Translations under genes and position numbers: made by a program | Notes under the pieces: model-generated | What the model saw: the letters and a program-made list of their open reading frames with translations, nothing else | Database searches by the model: none | Told to the model about the DNA's origin: nothing | Assembly: GCA_022711395.1 (NCBI GenBank) | Contig: JAKLFA010000001.1 | Coordinates: 3,277-67,276, forward strand | Direction of reading: 5' to 3' | DNA from: Candidatus Omnitrophota bacterium | Lineage (GTDB): Bacteria; Omnitrophota; Gorgyraeia; Zapsychrales; JANLHA01 | Length of the DNA: 64,000 nt | Part shown: piece after piece, positions 25,760 to 48,142 of the stretch | How positions within the stretch are numbered: position 1 is the stretch's first letter | Layout of the letters: every line of letters starts with the position of its first letter

Positions 25760-26269
25760 ATGAAAACCACGCAAGGCTTTACTCTTTTGGAACTCATTAT
25801 TGTGATCATCATTGTGGGCGTTCTGGCTTCTATAGCGCTTCCCAAGCTGTTTAGCGTGGTTGAAGGTTCGCGGGCGGCAGAGGCCTTGGCGGCTATTTCA
25901 AGTATCCGCTCATCCATGGAACGGTGTTATCTCATGAGTAATGGAACTTATTTTGGATGTCAAATTAATACATACGCTCCCACGAATGATTCGTTGGACA
26001 TTGAGAATCCCGAAAAATCTCCCGGGGCGCACTTTCGTTACCTTGTAACCTCAGGAGCTCCTTTTACCAGGAACGATTATGTGATCATCAGCATACGGAA
26101 TGCTGTGGACGGGGGCACCCATCAGGGGAAAATGATCAATTTTGGGTTGGGCGCCCGCGCGAGGGTTAATGCGGATCAGGTCAGCTATACACTGGAGTAT
26201 GTGGGAGATGATAAGATCTATTGGGATGCGTCCGATATTTATAAAGGATTGATCCCGAAGTCTAATTAG
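25760..26269 (+). CDS. type IV pilin-like / pseudopilin protein (class III signal peptide)
   Basis: MKTTQG|FTLLELIIVIIIVGVLASIALPK shows prepilin peptidase site G|F with Glu at +5. C-terminus ...IYWDASDIYKGLIPKSN. Confidence 0.75.
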   Translation: MKTTQGFTLLELIIVIIIVGVLASIALPKLFSVVEGSRAAEALAAISSIRSSMERCYLMSNGTYFGCQINTYAPTNDSLDIENPEKSPGAHFRYLVTSGAPFTRNDYVIISIRNAVDGGTHQGKMINFGLGARARVNADQVSYTLEYVGDDKIYWDASDIYKGLIPKSN

Positions 26270-26387
26270 TCATTTCATTTTACTGCGGATATGAAGTCCG
26301 CCTGCTTTGGCAGTTATCTGGAACAAACTTTTGAAAAGTTTTTCGAAAAATAAAAAACTTCCAATACAATTCATGTATATTCATAGA

Positions 26388-26876
26388 ATGCGAACAAAAA
26401 CCGGATTTACATTATTAGAGCTTATCATTGTGATCGTTATTGTTGGCGTGCTTGCTTCGCTTGCGCTTCCTAAGCTTTTCAGCGTGATAGAAGGGGCGCG
26501 GGCGGCAGAGGCCTTGTCCGCGATCGCCAGCATCCGTTCGGCCATGGAACGGTGTTACTTGATGAACAACGGATCGTATATGGGTTGTGCTTTTGGCCCC
26601 GGGTATAACTTTTTAACAATTGATGACCCCGGAACATCTCCTAACGCGCATTTTACATATAACATTCCTTTGGTAAGCAGCCTTTTTTACGTGATTATTG
26701 CGGACCGTAATGCTCTTGATGGGGGCGTTACGGTCGATCATCGGATCGTCATGGGATTTGGGATCCAGCCGCAGATGCAGCCAGGCGGCGGGACATCTTT
26801 GCTGGCGGGTGAAGAGGGAAAGATCTACTGGGATGCCTCACCAGCCTATAAAGGATTTGTTCCGAAGTCTAATTAA
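26388..26876 (+). CDS. type IV pilin-like / pseudopilin protein, paralog of 25760..26269
   Basis: MRTKTG|FTLLELIIVIVIVGVLASLALPK and the same C-terminal module (IYWDASPAYKGFVPKSN). Start moved to ATG 26388. Confidence 0.75.
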   Translation: MRTKTGFTLLELIIVIVIVGVLASLALPKLFSVIEGARAAEALSAIASIRSAMERCYLMNNGSYMGCAFGPGYNFLTIDDPGTSPNAHFTYNIPLVSSLFYVIIADRNALDGGVTVDHRIVMGFGIQPQMQPGGGTSLLAGEEGKIYWDASPAYKGFVPKSN

Positions 26877-29280: not shown

Positions 29281-29486
29281 GGGAACCTCCTGTGTTTTGG
29301 GGGCAAACATTGATAAAATCCGTTCCAAAATTGGATGGGCGATATTATAACATGTGAAGAATCGAGACACAAGATGAACGGAGAAAGTATGAAAAAGGGC
29401 AGGAATAAGAATGACAGAGCCCGTTATTTTTTGTTATAATCGGGCGTTCAGCGCACTTTCAGGTATTCTTCGAATACGTTTATGAA

Positions 29487-30557
29487 TTGCGGAAAATGAA
29501 ATATTCCAAATTTAAAACCATTCTGTTTTCCATATCCGCCATCGGTCTTTTTTTTGTCCTCATGGAGGTTTCTCTGCGGGGCATTTATTATCAAAAAAGC
29601 GAGTCCGAGCCTTTATGCGCCATGAAAGTTTACAAAAAGTTAAGGAAAGGACATTTTCAGCGTCTGGCCCAACGCCGAATGGAAGGCATGAATTTCGGCA
29701 AAGACCATTTACGGTTCTTGTATTCTGAAGTTGGAAAAGACCTGCTTGCGGAGCTCCAGGCAAGGTATGAGGGTGAATTTAAAAAATTGCGGGATGAGCT
29801 GGCCAGGGAGAATGTTCATTTGGTGATGCTGTATCTGCCGCATTACGCTTATTGGAACACGCACATGCCGGACTCGCGGGATTTCTTTAAAAGCCTGGCA
29901 GAACGATCCGGCGTGGATTTTATCGACATGACCGATGAGCTTTTTCTTTATGAGCCGGAAGAATTTTCCCTTCTGCCGGAAGAGAGGTATTTTTCGGCCT
30001 TTGGCAATCAGCTTGTCGCCGGGCGGTTATCGAAATATTTGCAAAATTTCTCGTCTCATCGCAGCACGCTCAAATTTGATAAACGGCCGGCATTATTCGG
30101 AGATGAAAAGCCCGGTTTTAATGACATTCATCCCTGGGACGATCATATGCCTTACATTCTGGAGGCCAACAGTCAGGGGCTGCGCATGGATTATGATCTG
30201 AGCTTTCCCAAAACACAGCAGCGGGTGCTTCTTCTGGGGGATGCTTATACCTATGGTCCGTATCTTGAAAATTTTGAAACATTTCCGGCAATCCTGGACA
30301 GGAGGCTGGAACATGCCGAAGTCATCAACGCCGGCTACGGAGGCTATACGATCTCTCACGAATCGTCACTGTATTTTGAGCGGGCAAAATATGTTGAACC
30401 TGATATTGTGATCCTTCAGGTGCTGGATAATGATCTTGAAGGGCTCGTCTACATTCATGAAAACCAATATGATCGTCATGGCAATGTTCGTGAGCCGACG
30501 TCGGCAGAGGCGTCTTTCATTAAAAAGGTTCACGCGCTGGGCAGGGGAAGGGAATGA
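29487..30557 (+). CDS. membrane-anchored SGNH/GDSL-like hydrolase-fold protein (AlgX/PatB-like?), paralog 1
   Basis: N-terminal TM segment. C-terminal RVLLLGDAYTYGPY...INAGYGGYTI...LQVLDNDLEG (GDS-type block with Ser in GDAY/GDSY). His-containing PHYAYWNTH upstream. Confidence 0.5.
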   Translation: MRKMKYSKFKTILFSISAIGLFFVLMEVSLRGIYYQKSESEPLCAMKVYKKLRKGHFQRLAQRRMEGMNFGKDHLRFLYSEVGKDLLAELQARYEGEFKKLRDELARENVHLVMLYLPHYAYWNTHMPDSRDFFKSLAERSGVDFIDMTDELFLYEPEEFSLLPEERYFSAFGNQLVAGRLSKYLQNFSSHRSTLKFDKRPALFGDEKPGFNDIHPWDDHMPYILEANSQGLRMDYDLSFPKTQQRVLLLGDAYTYGPYLENFETFPAILDRRLEHAEVINAGYGGYTISHESSLYFERAKYVEPDIVILQVLDNDLEGLVYIHENQYDRHGNVREPTSAEASFIKKVHALGRGRE

Positions 30558-31639
30558 ACACCGTTTGGTATAAAAAAGTTTTTTTTGCCATATTCGCTGC
30601 GGCTGTTCTATGCGCGCTCGCGGAGATTTCTTTGCGGGTCATTTATTATCAAAAGAGCGATGCGGAACCGTTGTGCGCGGTAAAGGTTTATAAAAAGCTG
30701 CGGAAAAATCATCTTCAGCGCGCGGCTCAAAAAGAAGCCGGGGACATGGCCCTCAGCAAGGACCACTTGCGTTTTTTGTATTCCGACGCTGGAGAAGATC
30801 TTTTGGTGGAGCTCCAGGCAAGGTATGAGGGTGAATTTAAAAAATTGCGGGATGAGCTGGCCAGGGAGAATGTTCATTTGGTGATGCTGTATCTGCCGCA
30901 TTACGCTTATTGGAACACGCACATGCCGGACTCGCGGGATTTCTTTAAAAGCCTGGCAGAACGATCCGGCGTGGATTTTATCGACATGACCGATGATTTG
31001 CTTCACTACGGGCTTGAGGAGGTCACACTGCTCCCTGAAGATCATCATTTGTCGAGATTTGGAAATCAGATCATCGCCAAGCGGCTATCTGGATATCTTA
31101 AGGATTTTGAGTCGCACCGCAGCGCGTTGAAGTTTAGTGAGCGCCCGGTTCTGCTCGGAGATGAGCGGCCCGGATTTTATGATCTGAGCCCCTGGGATAA
31201 GCGGATGCCGTTTATTTTAAAAACCAATGCGCAGGGCTTGCGCATGGATTATGACCTGGCATTCCCGAAAACACAGCAGCGGGTGCTTGTCCTGGGGGAT
31301 TCTTATACTTTTGGTCCGTATCTTGAGAATGCGCACACGTTTCCGGCGATCCTGGACAGAAAGCTGGAACATGCTGAGGTCATCAACGCCGGCCATGGCG
31401 GTTACACGATCTCGCACGAATCTTCACTGTATTTTGAGCGGGCGCAGTATAGTGAGCCTGATATTGTGGTCCTTCAGGTTTTGGACAATGATCTTGAAGG
31501 GCTTGTGTATATTCATGAAAATCAATACGACCGTCATGGCAAAGCCCGGACGCCGACCACGGCAGAAAGGGCTTTTTTGGAGCAAGCTATTCGATTGGAC
31601 AATAAAAAAGCCCAACCCCTAACGGGGCCGGGCTTTTAA
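30554..31639 (+). CDS. membrane-anchored SGNH/GDSL-like hydrolase-fold protein, paralog 2 (4-nt overlap with paralog 1)
   Basis: Same architecture with RVLVLGDSYTFGPY...INAGHGGYTI. Roughly 70% aa identity to paralog 1 outside the identical tract. Confidence 0.5.
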   Translation: MNTVWYKKVFFAIFAAAVLCALAEISLRVIYYQKSDAEPLCAVKVYKKLRKNHLQRAAQKEAGDMALSKDHLRFLYSDAGEDLLVELQARYEGEFKKLRDELARENVHLVMLYLPHYAYWNTHMPDSRDFFKSLAERSGVDFIDMTDDLLHYGLEEVTLLPEDHHLSRFGNQIIAKRLSGYLKDFESHRSALKFSERPVLLGDERPGFYDLSPWDKRMPFILKTNAQGLRMDYDLAFPKTQQRVLVLGDSYTFGPYLENAHTFPAILDRKLEHAEVINAGHGGYTISHESSLYFERAQYSEPDIVVLQVLDNDLEGLVYIHENQYDRHGKARTPTTAERAFLEQAIRLDNKKAQPLTGPGF

Positions 31640-31641
31640 AA

Positions 31642-31718
<77 letters not shown>

Positions 31719-31935
31719 GTGCTTTGAATGACAGCGCGGCTGAAGGGCACGATACCCCGCAAAACACCCATTTTTTAAATAACGAGTTTGTATTCTAACA
31801 TAAATGTCTTTGAAATCAAGCAATTTAAATGGCTGCCTTCAGCAGAAAATGGTCCGGTGATTGTTGGGCCCGGCTCGATTTTATGCTACAATTTCATACG
31901 ATCTACAAACAGAAATATGCGTCGGAGAACAGGCT

Positions 31936-32394
31936 ATGCAGGGTATAAGAGTGATCGTTCATAGACTGAATGTTGTTTTGATCTCATGCTGTGTGTTTTT
32001 GGTCTCGTCCGGCTGCTCGAAAGCACGAAAGATCGAAGGCGGATCATGGTCCTTTAAGGGCGCTGCAGGAAGGGTTGTCGTTGAAGACGGCCGGTATTAT
32101 TTCGGACGGAAAAAGAAAGACCCAAAGTATACGACCGTCACGGAATACAGCAAACACGCGTGTTATTTTAAATTCCAGTTGGTCAATCAGACGGACCAGC
32201 CCCTTCAGATCAAGACTATGGGGGAATTGCTGGATAAAGATGGAGCTCAGCTGGAGAGCGTCATGACCAATTATTATAAATCACTGGCCCCTGGGGAAGA
32301 AAAGACCATCGAAGGGTTCTTTGGTGTGACCAAAAAGGATGTTCTGCAGACAAAGCGTTTTCAGGTGGCGGTCACGGACATTCAATTTCAATAG
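31936..32394 (+). CDS. lipoprotein of unknown function
   Basis: GGAGAACAGG RBS. MQGIRVIVHRLNVVLISCCVFLVSSGCSK carries a lipobox. Confidence 0.5.
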   Translation: MQGIRVIVHRLNVVLISCCVFLVSSGCSKARKIEGGSWSFKGAAGRVVVEDGRYYFGRKKKDPKYTTVTEYSKHACYFKFQLVNQTDQPLQIKTMGELLDKDGAQLESVMTNYYKSLAPGEEKTIEGFFGVTKKDVLQTKRFQVAVTDIQFQ

Positions 32395-39848: not shown

Positions 39849-42101
39849 ATGAAAAAACTCACATCATTATTAATAATTTTTTTGATCCTGTCATTCGTGG
39901 CATACCCGATCCCCTCATTTGCTGAGGGAGTTGCTTTATCAGATGAGGAGATGGACCAGATCGCCGCCGGCGAATGGGTCTTTGCCAAGAATAACGGGCC
40001 GGTGAAAAAGAATTCACTGGAAGTCAACAGCGAGGCTCAGAGTGAACTTAAAGGGGTAAGCAACGCCAACACGGTCGATTCCGCTGTTGCCGGACAATAC
40101 AACGTTTCCAATGCGACGGAAGGCGTTGTGGATGTCAGCCAGGGCAACACGGCGAACGTGACGAACTCGGCGGTCACTCCTGACACCAGTTCATTCAAAG
40201 CTGTTGTCAATGAAACAACAGCGGTCGAGGAAACAACCAGCAATCAGCGCAATGACGTCGTGTCTTTCGGTGAGACCAAGACTAACGATAAGAGCGTGAC
40301 GTATAGTGACGTTGAGACCCTTGATGCCAGCTATTCCAAGACGGACACATTCCATTTGGAAGAGAGCGACAGCAAGACAAAAACATACGACATGGACCAG
40401 AAAGACACGTATTCATCGACAAAGGACAAATCTTCTTCTGAGGACAGTTCTCTGTCCGCTTCCTTTAGCGATGATAAGGCGTTTTCTGCCAGCTCCAGCA
40501 AGAATGTCGCCGCTGAGCACGCGGAAAGCGATACGTTCGATCTGAACAAATCCGATCAAGAAGCGTCAGAAAAGCACGCGACGGACAGCTCTTCATTCAG
40601 CGCGAACTTGGACGCAAGTGAAACAAAGTCCAAGAGCGATGATGAAAGCTTCTCCGCGGAGCACGCCTCAAGTGATACGTTCGATCTGAACAAGTCCGAT
40701 CAAGAGGCCTCCAGCAAGAGCGCGACACAGAATGAATCGTTCAGCGCCAGTTTGGATGCCAGCGAAACAAAGGCGAAGAGCGAAGATGAAAGTTTCGCTG
40801 CTGAGCATGCTTCAAGTGACACGTTCGATCTGAACAAATCTGATGAAGAGGCTTCATCATATTCAAGTTCGGATAATGAGCAGTCAGCCCTGTCTGTGAG
40901 CGCCAATGCCAGCAAGACAGAAGATGAAGCGATCAGCAAAGAAGCTTCTTTTACGGATAATTCCACGCAGGAGAACTCATCGACATCAACAGCATCTTCT
41001 GTTGTGGTTTCGGGTCCTGCTGAAGGCGAAACAGAGGTTTCTGGAGTGGCCGAAACCACTTTGGAGGCTTCAGCTGAAGACTCTGGAAGCGCTTCAGCGG
41101 CTACTTCTACAAACGAGTCAGCCAGCGCCGAGAGCCATGAGGGCTTGAGTGCGGCCGGCAGCTTCTCCAAGACCGAGAGCGAAACAAAGGACGCGTCCTT
41201 CGCGCTTGAAGGAAGCTCTTCGGATGTTGAATCCAAGGACAAGACATCAAGCGATAACGAATCGCTGGTGATCTCCTCCAATGAGCAGGCTTCGGGATCG
41301 GTCAGCAAGACAGATTCAGAGAGCTATGACAGCTCGAAGGCTCTGTCAGCCGGTGTTGATGCCTCTGCGTCAAAGACCTACGATTCTGAGAAGAGCGACA
41401 ACGAATCATTGGTGATCTCCTCCAATGAGCAGGCTTCGGGATCGGTCAGCAAGACAGATTCAGAGAGCTATGACAGCTCGAAGGCTCTGTCAGCCGGTGT
41501 TGATGCCTCTGCGTCAAAGACCTACGATTCCGCCAAGAGCGATAATGAATCATTGGTGATCTCTTCCGATGAACAGTCTTCGGGCTCGTTCAGCAAGGAT
41601 GAGGCGTCCAATGTTGATGCAACTTCGAATGTCGCGGCCAACTTGGATGCTTCGCATTCGGAGGCGGACAGCTACAGCTCAACCAAGAACAGCGATGAGA
41701 GCTACGTCGAAGCCAAGAGCTACGATGCGGCCAGCTCAAAGCTGATCGATAAAGATGAGAGCTCAGAAGGCTCGATCTCAGCAAGTAAGGATAAATCCGT
41801 TACTTACGATGATGTGAAGACCAAAGAGAAGACGGCGAGCGTGGATCATTCAGAAACTGACACGCACACGCTGGTCGACAACTCGACCTTTGCGTCAGAG
41901 ATCGAGAAGGATGAGACGAAGCAGGGGATCGTGAAGAATAAACTTCTGATCACCAATACATCGCAGAAGAATCTGACCGTCGTCAGCAACCTGAACGCCG
42001 TTGCATCCGCGACAGCGATCCAGGCCAACGTTGCCAATGCCAATACCGTGTCCGGGAACCTGACACAGGCCAACGTCGCGACGATCGTGAACGGGTTCTA
42101 A
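39849..42101 (+). CDS. secreted, extremely acidic Ser/Asp/Glu-rich repeat protein (candidate exported substrate A of the C39/outer-membrane-barrel cluster)
   Basis: Sec signal peptide MKKLTSLLIIFLILSFVAYPIPSFA. Then LSDEEMDQIAAG, a double-glycine-leader-like motif. About 650 aa of low-complexity S/D/E/T/K sequence with 47-48-aa tandem repeats. N/Q-rich C-terminal module ...TSQKNLTVVSNLNAVASATAIQANVANANTVSGNLTQANVATIVNGF. Confidence 0.7.
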   Translation: MKKLTSLLIIFLILSFVAYPIPSFAEGVALSDEEMDQIAAGEWVFAKNNGPVKKNSLEVNSEAQSELKGVSNANTVDSAVAGQYNVSNATEGVVDVSQGNTANVTNSAVTPDTSSFKAVVNETTAVEETTSNQRNDVVSFGETKTNDKSVTYSDVETLDASYSKTDTFHLEESDSKTKTYDMDQKDTYSSTKDKSSSEDSSLSASFSDDKAFSASSSKNVAAEHAESDTFDLNKSDQEASEKHATDSSSFSANLDASETKSKSDDESFSAEHASSDTFDLNKSDQEASSKSATQNESFSASLDASETKAKSEDESFAAEHASSDTFDLNKSDEEASSYSSSDNEQSALSVSANASKTEDEAISKEASFTDNSTQENSSTSTASSVVVSGPAEGETEVSGVAETTLEASAEDSGSASAATSTNESASAESHEGLSAAGSFSKTESETKDASFALEGSSSDVESKDKTSSDNESLVISSNEQASGSVSKTDSESYDSSKALSAGVDASASKTYDSEKSDNESLVISSNEQASGSVSKTDSESYDSSKALSAGVDASASKTYDSAKSDNESLVISSDEQSSGSFSKDEASNVDATSNVAANLDASHSEADSYSSTKNSDESYVEAKSYDAASSKLIDKDESSEGSISASKDKSVTYDDVKTKEKTASVDHSETDTHTLVDNSTFASEIEKDETKQGIVKNKLLITNTSQKNLTVVSNLNAVASATAIQANVANANTVSGNLTQANVATIVNGF
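40513..40860 (+). repeat. about 2.5 diverged tandem copies of a ~141-bp (47-aa) intragenic repeat
   Basis: AEHA(E/S)SDTFDLNKSD(Q/E)EAS...SFSA(N/S)LDASETK(S/A)KS(D/E)DESF(S/A) is repeated. Confidence 0.8.
41254..41600 (+). repeat. near-perfect 144-bp (48-aa) tandem repeats, 2 full copies plus a partial third
   Basis: Copies 41254-41397 and 41398-41541 differ at about 6 nt and share a perfectly identical core longer than 110 bp (SDNESLVISSNEQASGSVSKTDSESYDSSKALSAGVDASASKTYDS). Confidence 0.9.
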
Positions 42102-42189: not shown

Positions 42190-43179
42190 TTGCTGGCCGT
42201 GAAGAAGACCATGAACACATCTGTCAAGATCATAGCCTTTTCCATCCTTCTGCCATTTTCATGTTCAACGCTTTCGTACGCCGGAATGGCCAGGGTCATG
42301 AGCGATTATGAGCTTGACCAAGTGCACGCCGGCGGGTTGAACCTTGATTTTGACAAATTTCTTGGGTCCTTTTCGAGTGCCTCGGACACCGTTTCCAAAG
42401 GAGGGGTTACGGATACGGCGGCGGTCTTAAGCAGCCCGATCGTGATCGATAATAACGGAAAGAAAGTCCAGATCGTTGAGATCAAGGCGCCGAACACTCC
42501 GAAATTACCGAATATGCCTGTTGCGCCGACGGCCCCGACTACGGCCGGCAGCCTGCAGCAGGATCTTCCGGATGTGCCGGATGTGCCAGACGTGCCTGTC
42601 CCGGAAGTGAATGTGGCGTTAGCCACGGTTCCGGAGGCAACACGGTCCGCTTCACCGGATATTACGGTTGTGGATACCGCCTCGTCCGCGGTATTGGGCG
42701 CGACGTCAGATCTGGCGAATATCGTGCCGACGGTCCCGGTGACCGCGGCAAATGTTCCGGATGGGAGCGCCGCGGCAAATTCTGCGCCGTTGACCAACAG
42801 TGCGGCATCGGCGGTATCTTCTCCGACGGTCCCGACATCTCCGGTGGCTCCGACCGCACCGCAGGCTCCGGCGTCTCCGGTCATGCGGTTTGATGTGGTC
42901 GCAGGCCAGCAGAACGGAAAATTCGCGGTTGCGGTGAGCGATCAATCGGTTGGCGCAGCCGGAGCTCCGCTGTTTACGGCATCAAGCCCGGGATCCCAGA
43001 ACTTTTTGAATGTGACGGATACGGCTCAGCAGAATCTTGAGGCCCTGGTCAATGTGAACGCCGCCGGGAGCGTCGTGCCGGTCCAATTGAATTTGACGGT
43101 TTTGGTCAACTCAAACATTGAAAATTTGAATCTTTCGAATCAGTTGGATCTGAACAGTTTTTCAACATATCAATTTTGA
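42190..43179 (+). CDS. secreted Pro/Thr/Ala/Val-rich protein sharing N- and C-terminal motifs with substrate A (candidate substrate B)
   Basis: Signal peptide (KIIAFSILLPFSCSTLSYA), then MSDYELDQVHAGG, which matches the LSxxELxxIxGG double-glycine leader consensus. DVPDVPDVPV and a PT-rich linker. C-terminus TAQQNLEALVNVNAAGS...NLTVLVNSNIENLNLSNQLDLNSFSTYQF. The start is ambiguous (TTG 42190, GTG 42199 or ATG 42211). Confidence 0.6.
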   Translation: MLAVKKTMNTSVKIIAFSILLPFSCSTLSYAGMARVMSDYELDQVHAGGLNLDFDKFLGSFSSASDTVSKGGVTDTAAVLSSPIVIDNNGKKVQIVEIKAPNTPKLPNMPVAPTAPTTAGSLQQDLPDVPDVPDVPVPEVNVALATVPEATRSASPDITVVDTASSAVLGATSDLANIVPTVPVTAANVPDGSAAANSAPLTNSAASAVSSPTVPTSPVAPTAPQAPASPVMRFDVVAGQQNGKFAVAVSDQSVGAAGAPLFTASSPGSQNFLNVTDTAQQNLEALVNVNAAGSVVPVQLNLTVLVNSNIENLNLSNQLDLNSFSTYQF

Positions 43180-43229: not shown

Positions 43230-43925
43230 ATGAATATCCGCGCACTCTATACGTCTATTCTAACCGTTGCCTTTTTGATGTGCCACATTCCTATTGCTTC
43301 TGCCGCGACATTTAACGTCGCGGGGGTCCGGTTAACAAAAGACGTGAAACCGCTCCGGGAGATCAAACGAAGCAACGTTATTTCGCAGAGCCTGGATTTC
43401 AGCTGTGGGGCCGCAGGCCTTTCGACCCTCCTGAATTTTTATTTAAATGACGAAGTCAGCGAGCAGGAAATTATTGAAACGCTGTTAACGGTGGTCCCTA
43501 TCGAGAAAGTCCGCCAGCGCAAAGGGTTTTCATTGTTCGACCTAAAGACATTCGCTGAAAATCGCGGGTATAAGGTCACCGGTTATCAAATGGATTTTGA
43601 ATTTTTAAAGAACCTGGATGCGCCGGTCCTTGTTCCGATTCATTTCAGGAACTACAGCCATTTTGTCGTTGTGAGGGGGGTCGTAGGGGACAGGGTCTTC
43701 ATCGCGGATCCGGCGGCGGGCAATATGTCGATGAAGATCGATCAGTTCGAACGGGTCTGGGCCGGCGGGATCGGGCTGGTTGTTGAGCATCAATCTCCGG
43801 ACAGGGACCAGCGTTACGCCCTGCAGATCGAAGAGGACGACCTTCTTGTCGCGGACTATAAACATTTAAATAAGATCATGAACCAAATGATGGTGAGGAC
43901 AGCTGTATTTCCCTCAGAATATTAA
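43230..43925 (+). CDS. standalone secreted peptidase C39-family (bacteriocin-processing-type) cysteine peptidase
   Basis: Signal peptide MNIRALYTSILTVAFLMCHIPIASA. Catalytic-motif contexts are Q/Cys in ISQSLDFSCGAAGLSTLLNFY, His in NYSHFVVVRGV, and Asp in FIADPAAG. No ABC transporter domain is attached. Confidence 0.75.
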   Translation: MNIRALYTSILTVAFLMCHIPIASAATFNVAGVRLTKDVKPLREIKRSNVISQSLDFSCGAAGLSTLLNFYLNDEVSEQEIIETLLTVVPIEKVRQRKGFSLFDLKTFAENRGYKVTGYQMDFEFLKNLDAPVLVPIHFRNYSHFVVVRGVVGDRVFIADPAAGNMSMKIDQFERVWAGGIGLVVEHQSPDRDQRYALQIEEDDLLVADYKHLNKIMNQMMVRTAVFPSEY

Positions 43926-43958: not shown

Positions 43959-45350
43959 ATGCCAAAGAGCAGAACTTCAATAAGCCGGACAGCCTTTCTC
44001 ATTGTGGCGGTCATTGCCGGACTGGTCATCTTGAATCATCGGAACCAGCAGAAAATCATCCGGGACATGCGCGCTCAGATCAAAAAGGAATTGAAGATTG
44101 AACAGGCCCCGATCATTGAGCAGATGGTCAAAGACGAGGTCCGCAGGGTCTATGATGAAGAATTGGCGAAACACGCCACATCCGGGCTGCTGCTTTCAAA
44201 GGCCGGTCAGCCCGCTGACGAGGGTGAGACTTTAGACGAGGCGATCCATCGCATTGTATGGGAGGTTTACGCCGCAGAAGTTGAGGCCCGCAAGGCTTCC
44301 GGTGAAGTGGGCATCGCTTCCGACAGTGTTCTGGATGCGCATGTCGCCGGGGCGGGGATCGATCCGGACACGGCCATTCAAGGGGGATTCATCAAAAAGC
44401 CGGCGCTGGAGCCGGCATACCGTTTAGCCAAGGCTGCCGGAGACGCAGCGCCGGAATCATCGGATGAGATGGCCGTTGATGCAGGAGAAGGAGTGGAGCG
44501 GCCTGAATCGATCGAGCGGACCATGCAACAGAAGGGCAGCGTGCTGCTTCCCAAGGGCAAGCGCATTTTTGAGCCGAGTTTTACTTACGCTCATTTTTCC
44601 ACTAACCGTATCAATATTCAGGGCGTGACGATCCTGGATGTGTTTACCATCGGGCCTGTTTCCACGCAAAAGATACAGCGCGACATGTTCATTCAGACCT
44701 TCGGGTTCAAATATGGGCTGGCGGATAATTTGCAGGGAGACTTGCGTATTCCGTTCAGATATGAATTTGACCGGATCAGTAACAGTGATCAGACGGCTGA
44801 AGAGACCCGCAGCAAGGGCGGTTTGGGCGATATTGACGTGAGCGTTTCCCGGCAGATCGGATGGGAAGAGGGGTGGAAGCCGGATCTGATCGCGTCTTTG
44901 GGCGTGAAGTCAAATACCGGTAAACCGATCTATAACAACAGCATTGGTCTGGGGACAGGGCATTGGGCTGTGCGTGGGTCTCTGGTCGCGGCCAAATCCA
45001 GCGATCCGGCGGTCGTCTTCGGGAGTTTAAATTATATCCATAGTTTTAAACGCAGTTTCTCGAACTATGGGGAGATCGATCCCGGTGATACGATCGGTTA
45101 TAGTTTGGGCATGGCTCTTGCGTTAAGCTATCAGACGGCGATCAATTTTTCATTTGATCAGAGCTTCACACAAAAGCTCAAACGCGGCGGTGAAGCGGTG
45201 GTGGGTTCTTTTGTCAATTCCGCCAATTTTAAGACAGGCTTAAACTGGGCGTTGAGCGAGCGGGCTTCCGTGGATGTCAGCGCATCGGTCGGTTTGACGG
45301 AAGATTCCCCGGACTTTGCGGTTGAAGTCCGCGTTCCGGTGTATTTTTAA
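43959..45350 (+). CDS. outer-membrane beta-barrel protein with N-terminal coiled-coil and disordered linker (FapF-like architecture)
   Basis: N-terminal anchor/signal, a helical heptad region (IRDMRAQIKKELKIEQAPIIEQMVKDEVRRVYDEELAKH), an Ala/Pro/Glu-rich linker, then about 270 aa with alternating amphipathic beta-strand pattern ending in the OMP C-terminal signature ...VEVRVPVYF. Confidence 0.65.
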   Translation: MPKSRTSISRTAFLIVAVIAGLVILNHRNQQKIIRDMRAQIKKELKIEQAPIIEQMVKDEVRRVYDEELAKHATSGLLLSKAGQPADEGETLDEAIHRIVWEVYAAEVEARKASGEVGIASDSVLDAHVAGAGIDPDTAIQGGFIKKPALEPAYRLAKAAGDAAPESSDEMAVDAGEGVERPESIERTMQQKGSVLLPKGKRIFEPSFTYAHFSTNRINIQGVTILDVFTIGPVSTQKIQRDMFIQTFGFKYGLADNLQGDLRIPFRYEFDRISNSDQTAEETRSKGGLGDIDVSVSRQIGWEEGWKPDLIASLGVKSNTGKPIYNNSIGLGTGHWAVRGSLVAAKSSDPAVVFGSLNYIHSFKRSFSNYGEIDPGDTIGYSLGMALALSYQTAINFSFDQSFTQKLKRGGEAVVGSFVNSANFKTGLNWALSERASVDVSASVGLTEDSPDFAVEVRVPVYF

Positions 45351-45513: not shown

Positions 45514-45789
45514 ATGATTGCATTGATCAAAGGTGCGGCGATCGGGTTTTTGATGACATTTTCGTTTGTTTTTCTGCTTTTGCTGGCGGAGACGAAATTT
45601 TTATGGCGCTACATGGATCTTTCGGAGGGTCTGCGTGTTTGTTTCGGGTCCGTTCCAGCCGTTTTTTTAGGGGCGTTTCAATTCAGAGAAAAACGATTAT
45701 TTGGTATGGGGTTGCTTTGCGGGGTTGTGCTCGCGGGCGTGGCATGGTTTGGTTTTATCATGAGCATTTTAATATCGTTTGGGGAGTGA
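45514..45789 (+). CDS. small membrane protein (91 aa)
   Basis: Three hydrophobic segments. Preferred over the overlapping 45492 frame on composition. Confidence 0.35.
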   Translation: MIALIKGAAIGFLMTFSFVFLLLLAETKFLWRYMDLSEGLRVCFGSVPAVFLGAFQFREKRLFGMGLLCGVVLAGVAWFGFIMSILISFGE

Positions 45790-45811
45790 GGGGCCTTATA
45801 CGGGCTTGCTT

Positions 45812-48142
45812 ATGAGAAATACTGTCAGAAATTTTTTTGCGAGAATAAAAAACCGGATGATGTTCATTGCTTCGGCTTTTTTGATCGCTGCGTTTACTCT
45901 TGCCGCTGTTCATATCAAGGTCCTCTATTTCTTGCTATACAGGCCATATTCGGCTTATTTGTATCTTTCGAGTTTTTTTTATAAACAGGCGTTTTTAAAA
46001 ACGGGGCAGTTTCCGCTGTGGGACCCACTCATGATGTGCGGGATCAGTGACACATCGAACATGCCCTTTCCGCTTTCGCTTTTCAGGATCTTCACGCTTT
46101 CAGGGTTTTCGGCGATCTATTCGGTGTTCTTGACCGAACTTTTTTTCACGGTCATGGGAGCCGTGTTTTTTTATCTTTTGATGCGGGTTTATCGATGTTC
46201 CAGGCCGGTGGCCCTTTTGGGAACATTCCTCTATATATTTTGGCTTTATAAATGGAATGTGTCTGAAGGTTATCCTATGGCTTTGGCACCGGCGGTCTTT
46301 TATGCCGTCCAGAAATATGAATTGACCTTAAAATACAAATATATTTTTTTAGGGGCGGTGGCCGTCGGCGTGACCTGTCTCACGGGGATCATTCACGCTG
46401 TTGCCGTGATTTTTTTGTTCCATATGGTGGTGATCGCGTGCTTTTTGAAACAAAGGGTTTTTTGGAAATACTGTCTGGCCGGGTTTTTGTCTTGGGGCCT
46501 GGGATTTATACTGGCGTTGCCGTCCCTTGTTCCGCAGGTCAAGGATCTGCCGGAAAGTCAGCGGATCTTTTACGCCAAAGGCATGTTTGATTTCGCGAAT
46601 TTAGACTGGTCGAAATTCTGGCTAAGGTTCAATGAGGTCCTTCAGTTGTTCCCGTTCTCACCCGTATTCATGTTCTGTTTTGTTCTGGCCTTCCTTTCGA
46701 TCTTTTTCCTGAAAGACCAAAAGTTGAGGACGGTTTTTTATGTGTCCGTGGGTTTTTTTGTTTTTCATATTGTTTTGAGCTTCACGCAGACCGCATGGAA
46801 GGCGCTGCCTTTGATCGGAAAGTTCATTAACGCCGTTGACCTTTATCGCTCCGCGGCTTTGACCGGTTTTATTGTCCTTTTTTTCAGCACGTATCTGATC
46901 CACGTTCTCACGGAGGCCCCGTTCGTGGCGCGCCTTAGAAGAAAAATGCTCATTTTTCTGAGCGCGATCTTTTTAACGGTTTTTTTCGCCTTCCTTTATA
47001 TGGTCGCTCTCTCGGACGCGGAATTGATCATTGCCGCTGGTTCGGGGGTGATGGCCTTTGTGTTGGTGCATGTCTTTTTTCGTCATGCGTTCTTGAGGAG
47101 AGGCTTGAGCGTTCTTTTAGTAGGGATGGTTTTTTATTACAGCGCGGTGACTGACGGGATCTTCTTCTACCGGTATTGTTATAAGATGAATATTCAAAAG
47201 AAGGGGTTTCCGTTCTTTCAGGGGGTCATGGATGATTTTTATCCCAGGACCTATTTGGGGCTTTTTGCGGATGAGCCTTCGATGTCCAGGGGCCTGGCCT
47301 GGAAGATCATGGAGGAAAATGTTGCCAGGGAACATCTTCGCGGCGCGGACATCGGTGTTTATAATTTTTACGGGAAAGTGCGTTTTTACGCTGATGGATT
47401 GAACAGCATCTACGGGGTCGCCAATATCTATCCTGCGAGGTATTACGAATTTTTTTCCTGGATGGCCAACACTTCAGCAGTTGAGGCGCCGGACGCGGCT
47501 TATGCATTTGGTATCGATTCCGAGCTTGATCCCACGCTGATGAGCCTTGCCGGGGTTGGGTGGTTGGTGACGCCTAAAGATTTTGTCAGTGATGAGCTGC
47601 GGCTTGTTTGGAAAGGGGAAAAGTACGCGCTTTACAGGAATGACAGGGTTTTTCCTCGGGCGTTCACGGTCTTTCAGTTGAACGCGTTTGATGATAAAGC
47701 GGGGCTTGAAAATTATTTGAAAGAGGCCCCGGATGGGAGCTTAAGGGCCGCGGCAGCTGTTTTGAAAGAAGAGGTGAAAGGGTTGCCCGCTGAAGCCGTA
47801 AGCGGTTCCGGCAACGGCACGGCCGCGATCACAATATACGAACCAAACCAGGTCGTAGTCGAAGCGGATTTAAATGCCGACGGTCTGCTGGTCTTAACGG
47901 ACATGTTCCATCCGAACTGGCGCGCCACTGTTGATGGAGATCCGGTTGAGATCTATCCCGCGTATCATGTGTTCCGGATGGTCGCGTTGTCTAAGGGAAA
48001 ACATACGGTCCGGTTTTTTATCAAGGATGATGCCTTCACCCTGGCGCTCTGGGCTTCTTCCGGCGCGCTGATAGGAATGGTCTTGTTCTTTTTTTGGAGA
48101 AAGAGGAAAAGCGTCTCAGAGGCAGATCAAAAAGGGAAATGA
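45812..48142 (+). CDS. large polytopic membrane protein (YfhO-like; possible glycosyl/arabinosyl-transferase-type)
   Basis: About 15 TM helices over the first ~480 aa, then a soluble C-terminal domain and a final TM (WASSGALIGMVLFFFW). The start could be 45779 or 45812. Confidence 0.5.
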   Translation: MRNTVRNFFARIKNRMMFIASAFLIAAFTLAAVHIKVLYFLLYRPYSAYLYLSSFFYKQAFLKTGQFPLWDPLMMCGISDTSNMPFPLSLFRIFTLSGFSAIYSVFLTELFFTVMGAVFFYLLMRVYRCSRPVALLGTFLYIFWLYKWNVSEGYPMALAPAVFYAVQKYELTLKYKYIFLGAVAVGVTCLTGIIHAVAVIFLFHMVVIACFLKQRVFWKYCLAGFLSWGLGFILALPSLVPQVKDLPESQRIFYAKGMFDFANLDWSKFWLRFNEVLQLFPFSPVFMFCFVLAFLSIFFLKDQKLRTVFYVSVGFFVFHIVLSFTQTAWKALPLIGKFINAVDLYRSAALTGFIVLFFSTYLIHVLTEAPFVARLRRKMLIFLSAIFLTVFFAFLYMVALSDAELIIAAGSGVMAFVLVHVFFRHAFLRRGLSVLLVGMVFYYSAVTDGIFFYRYCYKMNIQKKGFPFFQGVMDDFYPRTYLGLFADEPSMSRGLAWKIMEENVAREHLRGADIGVYNFYGKVRFYADGLNSIYGVANIYPARYYEFFSWMANTSAVEAPDAAYAFGIDSELDPTLMSLAGVGWLVTPKDFVSDELRLVWKGEKYALYRNDRVFPRAFTVFQLNAFDDKAGLENYLKEAPDGSLRAAAAVLKEEVKGLPAEAVSGSGNGTAAITIYEPNQVVVEADLNADGLLVLTDMFHPNWRATVDGDPVEIYPAYHVFRMVALSKGKHTVRFFIKDDAFTLALWASSGALIGMVLFFFWRKRKSVSEADQKGK

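Follow-up and report, generated by a model that had tools for sequence, protein, structure and literature searches.

Two adjacent genes of a Candidatus Omnitrophota contig, here designated g1 and g2, are old and diverged tandem paralogues in which an internal island of sequence has, in all likelihood, been kept identical by recurrent intrachromosomal gene conversion. Both are open reading frames (ORFs) on the same strand and belong to the AlgJ/AlgX type of protein. The contig comes from a short-read metagenome assembly; the 64,000 nucleotides (nt) of it that were analysed are called the window, and coordinates follow window numbering. Counterparts of the two genes in a sister lineage are designated g1s and g2s. 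The pattern is one of recurrent, partial concerted evolution. Gene conversion had been proposed earlier from the letters alone (the sequence-only reading), and the proposal is supported by independent assemblies, by a homogenised tract at the same place in the sister lineage, and by a switch in tree topology at the tract.

Divergence between g1 and g2, when the two genes are aligned, is not uniform. In the codon alignment, 240 differences are spread over the 834 nt aligned outside the tract (71% nucleotide identity), whereas the tract itself is an exact shared run of 189 nt; the second longest exact run is 21 nt. The sequence-only reading had described an identical tract of ~177 bp. The island is real, though its true length is 189 nt and the coordinates then assigned to the second copy were ~3 nt out of register, both ranges lying within the tract. 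Overall protein identity, put earlier at ~70%, was measured as 72%. Outside the tract, 41% of the codons specifying the same amino acid differ synonymously, and inside it none of 62 codons differs. In 200,000 shuffles of the codon columns the longest run averaged 25 nt, reached 73 nt at most, and never attained 189 nt. Synonymous divergence (dS, by the Nei-Gojobori method, as throughout) between g1 and g2 runs from 0.65 to saturation outside the tract and is 0 inside, where the absence of differences at ~39 synonymous sites limits dS to <0.077 at 95% confidence. The highest non-synonymous divergence between the copies (pN 0.23) lies in amino acids 149-240, next to the 3' edge of the tract. The 64-kb window contains neither the tract nor the gene a third time.

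Features of the g1-g2 locus (window coordinates)
Feature	Coordinates	Strand	Description	Basis
g1	29496..30557	+	353 amino acids; predicted N-terminal membrane anchor and permuted SGNH domain, without catalytic Ser/His	ORF list
g2	30554..31639	+	361 amino acids, catalytic set intact	ORF list; identical to HSA30392.1, hypothetical protein (exact look-up)
Probable conversion tract, g1 copy	29750..29938	+	codons 85/86-148	exact 189-nt identity with 30808-30996
Probable conversion tract, g2 copy	30808..30996	+	exact match at offset 1058	
Segment homogenised in sister lineage only	30711..30807 (g1 counterpart 29653-29749)	+	g1/g2 diverged in window	alignments, site patterns
g1 remnant of block V	29982..29990	+	E-R-Y; family has D/N-x-H	translation; His in 73/73 other members
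g1 remnant of block I	30237..30245	+	G-D-A; family has G-D-S	translation; Ser in 73/73 other members
g2 block V, D163-H164-H165	31040..31048	+	D-x-H as in AlgJ/AlgX; begins 43 nt past tract end	
g2 block I, G248-D249-S250	31295..31303	+	predicted nucleophile	family alignment and profile alignment to canonical SGNH block I
Promoter-like site	29411..29440	+	ATGACA, 18-nt spacer, TG-TATAAT; 56 nt 5' of g1 ATG	consensus scan, 11/12 matches
G+C-rich hairpin	31606..31637		A and T runs on both sides; doubles as last 11 codons of g2	terminator scan

Contigs of the sister lineage, 87-91% identical to the window in the upstream genes, show a comparable island. Contig L066 carries rubrerythrin, g1s and the start of g2s, ending 58 nt into the second repeat copy. 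Contig L008, the only one obtained by a search of metagenomes for relatives, is a 1180-nt loop, the same 123 nt standing at its start and at its end (period 1057). Contig L006 leads from the 5' part of g1s through the repeat into the 3' part of g2s, and agrees with L008 over 289 nt with one mismatch. The homogenised tract of the sister lineage is thus ~289 nt long and corresponds to window 30711-30999, its copies differing at no more than one position. The 3' edges of the two lineages' tracts coincide within 3 nt, and the 5' edge in the sister lineage lies 97 nt further upstream. Those 97 nt, homogenised only in the sister lineage, are a patchwork of g1-type and g2-type sites, and exchange must therefore have occurred in both directions, with at least three events overall. 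No polarity was obtained for the conversion in the window lineage, both copies being homogenised in both lineages. L006 was at one point considered as an ancestral single-copy locus; this was dropped, as L008 and L066 show two copies in the same lineage and the path of L006 is g1 5' part, tract, g2 3' part.

Between lineages, the tracts differ at 20 of 189 positions (~10%), and dS across them is 0.41-0.45, within the range seen for orthologous sequence elsewhere (0.25-0.55); within a genome, tract dS is 0 to 0.03. Neighbour-joining trees built from outside the tract (amino acids 30-52 plus 149-340) group the genes by orthology, (g1,g1s)(g2,g2s), and the tree from inside (amino acids 53-148) groups them by genome, (g1,g2)(g1s,g2s). 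The latest conversion in the window genome is recent relative to the lineage split, given a tract dS of <0.077 against ~0.4 between lineages. A side observation concerns the 3' region of g1 (30306-30485, gene positions 810-990), in which, at sites differing between g1 and g1s, the g2 state is carried by the window g1 18 times and by g1s 5 times, which weakly suggests that g2-to-g1 conversion, older or patchy, affected this region in the window lineage.

Extreme purifying selection, acting on the protein or on an embedded nucleotide-level element, could in principle keep two copies identical with no recombination. In favour of this, the in-frame tract specifies core elements of secondary structure, which in the structural model of g2 are the end of a helix (residues 78-104), a strand (108-114), a variable loop (115-123), a helix (124-137), a strand (141-144) and the start of a further helix (146-150). 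Synonymous sites are nevertheless as identical as the others, in contrast to conserved codons elsewhere, and the same segment differs between the lineages by the amounts given above. The tract is also less conserved across the protein family (mean top-residue frequency 0.46, compared with 0.70 for amino acids 241-320) than the C-terminal half, itself only 85% identical between g1 and g2, and an Rfam scan of the tract found no RNA family. Taken together, the tree switch and the between-lineage divergence of the tract rule out nucleotide-level purifying selection as the cause of the identity, and an account that dispenses with recombination deserves next to no credence.

The reproducibility of the assembly also matters, as the true copies might differ and an assembler might have collapsed or borrowed the sequence of one of them, or merged co-occurring strains. 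Three points weigh against gene conversion here. The single-base identity of the tract rests on short-read metagenome assemblies. The locus is hard to assemble: the 547-kb contig L001 stops at window 29832, within the g1 tract, and L006 and L064 are single-gene contigs in which one copy is skipped, the 5' portion of g1 running straight into the 3' portion of g2, with L064 switching from sister to window lineage inside the tract; one further sequence, P0125, is a mosaic of the two lineages. Finally, the g2s copy of the sister tract is seen directly only in its first 123 nt and, via L006, at its 3' junction, so that its middle is deduced. A borrowed tract, however, requires common k-mers at both junctions, and with exact matches of at most 21 nt elsewhere in the genes there is no k-mer bridge by which it could have been grafted during assembly. 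Both full 189-nt copies are present in L004 (JGI 3300025902), 100% identical to the window locus, and in L002 (ENA ERZ795055, SPAdes), 99.7% identical; L065 (ENA, MEGAHIT k141) matches the window at 100% from within the g1 tract through the whole g2 tract. With the window metagenome-assembled genome (MAG), this makes four assemblies, from different samples and assemblers, that give the same sequence through the tract junctions. A truly identical repeat longer than k is expected to make contigs break or loop precisely there, as is seen at the tract, and the sister lineage has the same architecture with a different tract sequence. Duplication of the segment during assembly, a concern of the sequence-only reading, is not borne out, both copies being found in independent assemblies, and an assembly artefact of any of these kinds is very unlikely, although a few differences between the copies could have escaped these assemblies.

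Two further observations were made on the single-gene contigs. In L006 (718-1803) and L064 (5001-6086) a single 361-amino-acid hybrid gene, with a g1 5' part and a g2 3' part, stands between rubrerythrin and the downstream gene; these hybrids may be genuine products of deletion by recombination, or else assemblies that are collapsed or chimeric. In addition, window ~31240-32317, comprising the 3' 400 nt of g2 and 678 nt downstream, is 99.9-100% identical to L006 and L064, the upstream parts of which are only 87-91% identical. Recent recombination between lineages could account for this, as could a strain-chimeric assembly.

Both genes encode members of a family of unannotated hypothetical proteins. 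Hidden Markov model searches, among the checks that the sequence-only reading had put forward, detected Pfam Lipase_GDSL_2 (PF13472) in the C-terminal half of both proteins (41.6 bits for g2 and 31.2 bits for g1). Pfam ALGX (PF16822) scored 31.9 bits for g2, above the cutoff of 26.5, and 15.2 bits for g1, below it; most relatives carry only PF13472 in precomputed annotation, and an NCBIfam scan returned no informative family. The family alignment and profile comprise 75 members including g1 and g2, residue counts being given among the 73 others. Compared with canonical SGNH enzymes, the profile matches in swapped order, positions 241-319 with the N-terminal blocks I-III and positions 92-196 with the C-terminal block V region, and the domain is therefore circularly permuted. 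The block order in g2 is DHH 163-165, GDS 248-250, NAG 278-280 and ND 312-313, with the His preceding blocks I-III. An AlphaFold2 model of g2 has a mean predicted local distance difference test score (pLDDT) of 92.8, a predicted template modelling score (pTM) of 0.90, and an N-terminal helix at residues 3-31 that would suit a membrane anchor. In a Foldseek search with this model the best match from the Protein Data Bank (PDB) was 4o8v, the O-acetyltransferase domain of AlgJ (E 1.1e-7, 294 aligned columns, target-normalised template modelling score 0.55), and canonical SGNH enzymes aligned over only 117-162 columns, about half of the domain. The sequence-only reading had hesitated between an AlgX/AlgJ/PatB-like fold and a lipase. 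Pfam, profile, model and Foldseek results now settle the predicted fold as a circularly permuted SGNH domain of the AlgJ/AlgX type.

AlgJ and AlgX are circularly permuted SGNH proteins with the order H-S-G-N and a D-x-H block V (PMC4148444, PMC9487903), and form a paralogous pair of one operon with separate roles (PMC4148444). Like AlgJ and AlgX (PDB 4o8v, 4knc), g2 has a permuted SGNH core in H-S-G-N order, a D-x-H block V, an N-terminal membrane anchor and a domain outside the cytoplasm, as judged from the model. Unlike them, it shares only 15-16% sequence identity, and its family has a canonical GDS block I (GTSYS in AlgJ), keeps Asn in block III (LDND, with N312-D313 invariant or near-invariant) where AlgJ and AlgX have Tyr, and lacks a carbohydrate-binding module of the AlgX type; neither an MBOAT (AlgI-like) partner nor alginate genes were found in the window. 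A permuted SGNH core is likewise found in the PatB1/DHHW family, O-acetyltransferases acting on secondary cell wall polysaccharides (PDB 5v8e), whose block V, TDHHW, resembles EDHHLS of g2. That family is absent among the Foldseek and profile matches, however, and has KDS and DxRY as blocks I and II where g2 has GDS and NAG. Membership of the AlgX family proper is borderline, and g1 and g2 are best placed in a distinct, uncharacterised family. By analogy, the enzyme is probably a membrane-anchored, extracytoplasmic O-acyl esterase or transferase acting on a glycan. Telling against this assignment, no MBOAT, carbamoyltransferase or polysaccharide gene was found in the window, where all gene-like ORFs of at least 200 amino acids were scanned and the rest are too short for an MBOAT.

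The tract was earlier said to encode a conserved His-containing block. This does not hold, as the PHYAYWNTH loop within it is hypervariable in the 75-member alignment, where position 123 is I, R, S, N, V, other residues or a gap. The His that is invariant in the family, H165 of D-x-H-LSRFGN, lies beyond the tract, 43 nt (14 codons) past its 3' end. At the first position of this motif (163), 41 members have D and 30 have N.

The Ser-His-(Asp) catalytic set is kept in g2, and from its sequence g1 appears to be catalytically dead, a loss that the sequence-only reading had not noted. The substitutions of S250 by Ala, of H165 by Tyr and of the nearly invariant R168 by Ala in g1 occur in no other of the 75 members, and g1 retains the remaining residues that are invariant in the family (G248, D249, N278, N312, D313). 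The same GDA and ERY substitutions are carried by g1s, and the catalytic loss therefore predates the lineage split. Ratios of non-synonymous to synonymous divergence (dN/dS) are 0.08-0.29 across regions between g1 and g1s, and ~0.16 between g1 and g2, although dS is saturated in the latter comparison. Because a full-length ORF and ratios indicative of purifying selection persist despite the losses, g1 is most likely a retained non-catalytic partner or pseudoenzyme.

A retained function for g1 has to be set against its condition in the sister lineage. There, g1s has a 1-nt deletion (T5 to T4) in a T run 3 nt past the tract end (L008 ~289, L066 ~1098-1102, equivalent to window 29939-29945). The resulting frameshift is found in two independent assemblies and gives a truncated product of 234 amino acids (P0047). 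The downstream frame is otherwise intact, and the frameshift would therefore be recent. The frameshift in L008 and L066 counts against a functional g1, an intact frame not being found everywhere, and g1 may be dispensable instead of a functional pseudoenzyme. It is a possible, if less favoured, explanation that g1 is a decaying pseudogene and that conversion is an incidental by-product of residual homology. The lost Ser, His and R168, the frameshift, and the fact that all ~30 distant relatives manage with a single copy are consistent with decay; the full-length ORF in the window lineage, the low dN/dS values and the conservation of the remaining family-invariant residues are not, and the losses common to g1 and g1s mean that the gene has persisted without these residues since before the lineages separated.

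Gene conversion at this locus would involve the repeated homogenisation, by non-reciprocal homologous recombination presumably of the RecA type, of a 189-nt beta-alpha-beta unit lying just 5' of the D-x-H motif. The island probably perpetuates itself, as the sole stretch long and identical enough for recombination to start and be resolved, and flanks with no more than 60-70% identity would stop the heteroduplex from extending. An appealing complement is that the 3' edge may be held in part by selection against the transfer of a dead or an active catalytic motif from one copy to the other. A stronger form of the latter idea is that conversion is real, and that both the position of the island and its sharp 3' edge are held by selection. 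The island would then be a module that must be identical in both proteins, for example a surface for a common partner or for each other, and any conversion running on into the D-x-H motif, 14 codons past the edge, would be selected against, as it would inactivate g2 or reactivate g1. The two lineages have 3' edges that agree to within 3 nt and 5' edges that lie 97 nt apart, the tract ends 43 nt before the DHH/ERY codons, the adjoining amino acids 149-240 have the highest pN between copies, and g1 is under purifying selection, all of which would be expected in such a case. A neutral, self-perpetuating island with diverged flanks predicts the same pattern, however; only two lineages were sampled, and the frameshift in g1s speaks against an obligatory partner. 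An edge held by selection is judged rather unlikely, and the simplest account of the stable position is a neutral island that maintains itself.

Beyond the two close lineages, the nearest homologue (P0002, in contig L007) is 63% identical and branches outside the g1/g2 split in the tree. L007 was examined as a second tandem case and rejected, the gene upstream of P0002 being unrelated. A search of genome contigs with a single protein found no close relative. Distant relatives were found with a 13-sequence alignment as query: ~30 full-length proteins, 31-45% identical, all from MAGs of many phyla, and each a single copy within 4 kb. Single copies in the relatives, and the position of P0002 outside the split, indicate that the duplication is specific to this small clade and old within it. 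Copy number in relatives had been named in the sequence-only reading as a matter to look into, and proves to be two in the sister lineage and one in the ~30 distant relatives.

Glycosyltransferases adjoin the family gene at 13 of 27 relative loci. In 9 of 27 distant relatives, from several phyla, a cassette is seen which comprises a carbamoyltransferase (~605 amino acids), an SxtJ-like gene (PF19588), the AlgJ-like SGNH gene of the family, and DUF5989 (PF19451, 52 amino acids). It is found in L009 (3770-7231) and also in L014, L015, L017, L019, L021, L026, L032 and L038, usually within clusters of glycosyltransferase and methyltransferase genes. No MBOAT gene was seen next to the family genes in L009-L011. 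At the window locus no small DUF5989- or SxtK-like ORF follows g2, the space being taken by a tRNA-Met gene. In the saxitoxin segment sxtI-sxtJ-sxtK-sxtL, sxtL is a GDSL-lipase homologue (PMC2679770). The relatives' cassette resembles this segment in having a carbamoyltransferase, an SxtJ-like gene, the family gene and a DUF5989 gene of SxtK size, but its gene order differs, the window locus lacks these neighbours, and the likeness is one of gene layout. A literature search under the name DUF5989 found no publications. By analogy, the contexts in relatives support a role in modifying a glycan or other hydroxylated substrate, and the cassette may mark an undescribed module for glycan O-carbamoylation.

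A more far-reaching combination of these strands can be put forward only as speculation, and is thought improbable: g2 and the dead g1 would form a heteromeric pair, or a pair acting on a common partner, and the conversion island would be a selected device that keeps one structural module, the beta-alpha-beta unit of amino acids 86-148, identical and is blocked by selection 14 codons further on, where live and dead motifs would have to differ. The family itself, found in other phyla within the carbamoyltransferase-SxtJ-DUF5989 cassette, might supply the extracytoplasmic transferase of a glycan O-carbamoylation route not yet described. If true, this would be a bacterial case of partial concerted evolution bounded by selection, between an enzyme and its pseudoenzyme.

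In bacteria, concerted evolution through gene conversion between paralogues is known from tufA/tufB and from the 26 genes described by Wang and Chen in 2018 (PMC6053082). As in those cases, paralogues of one genome resemble each other here more than orthologues from different genomes do, homogenisation extends to synonymous sites, and the process recurs across lineages. Unlike them, only an island of 190-290 nt is homogenised, with flanks diverged to saturation; the copies are adjacent, one of them apparently catalytically dead; and the depth is only that of two closely related lineages. In E. coli evolution experiments, deletions that join one tandem paralogue to the next have produced hybrid genes (PMC13626634). 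The hybrid of L006 and L064 is the expected product of unequal crossing-over at the tract and is in this respect similar, although for these contigs a collapsed or chimeric assembly explains the hybrid at least as well.

The phenomenon is therefore a known one, ordinary bacterial gene conversion, and its distinctive detail is the enzyme/dead-enzyme pair, as predicted from sequence, in an uncharacterised AlgJ-like family. What the locus adds is a well-documented instance of partial concerted evolution in a phylum, Omnitrophota, that only metagenomes have revealed, with an island of 190-290 nt homogenised independently in two lineages. It also carries a caution for work on MAGs, as short-read assemblies of this locus broke, looped, collapsed two genes into a hybrid, or joined strains; because of such failures at the tract, a "single hybrid gene" in a MAG is not to be taken as biology without the reads. 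A family of unannotated hypothetical proteins has been assigned to the permuted SGNH fold of the AlgJ/AlgX type, with a unique, catalytically dead member identified within it, and the carbamoyltransferase-SxtJ-DUF5989 neighbourhood in relatives could guide functional work. Current understanding is not overturned by any of these results.

An exact-sequence look-up identified g1 with HSA30393.1 and g2 with HSA30392.1, both hypothetical proteins on a 580-kb contig of a third-party Candidatus Omnitrophota MAG. An alternative TTG start at 29487 would give g1 356 amino acids; the ATG at 29496 is likelier and was chosen by the gene callers in other assemblies (353 amino acids). The stop of g1 and the start of g2 overlap as ATGA, with the purine-rich GGGGAAGGGA preceding the g2 start, and the genes are probably co-transcribed and translationally coupled. 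The promoter-like site upstream of g1 would be the probable promoter of a g1-g2 bicistron, judged solely by its match to the consensus; shuffled sequence contains at least as many such sites as this region does. The hairpin at the end of g2 is likely a bidirectional terminator, to judge from its sequence, and lies between g2 and a tRNA-Met (CAT) gene on the minus strand (31642-31718) that begins 3 nt past the g2 stop. Contigs L002, L004 and L005 all terminate inside this tRNA-Met gene (31684-31706).

The setting upstream is a housekeeping one, with FtsH, two pilin-like genes, enolase, DivIC and rubrerythrin; downstream are the tRNA-Met gene, an FxLYD-like protein and a DEAD-box helicase. The ORF past the tRNA (31861-32394) has a weak FxLYD match (NCBIfam, 21.4 bits against a cutoff of 23), and other assemblies use a later start, giving 133 amino acids. 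A second tandem pair of paralogues, prepilin-type genes (N_methyl, ComP_DUS-like) at 25760-26269 and 26307-26876, is ~76% identical over 186 nt and has no identity island. Further downstream, three large ORFs without a Pfam match, at 39849-42101 (750 amino acids), 42190-43179 (329 amino acids) and 45779-48142 (787 amino acids), flank a Peptidase_C39 gene (43230-43925) and a Phenol_MetA_deg-like outer-membrane gene (43959-45350).

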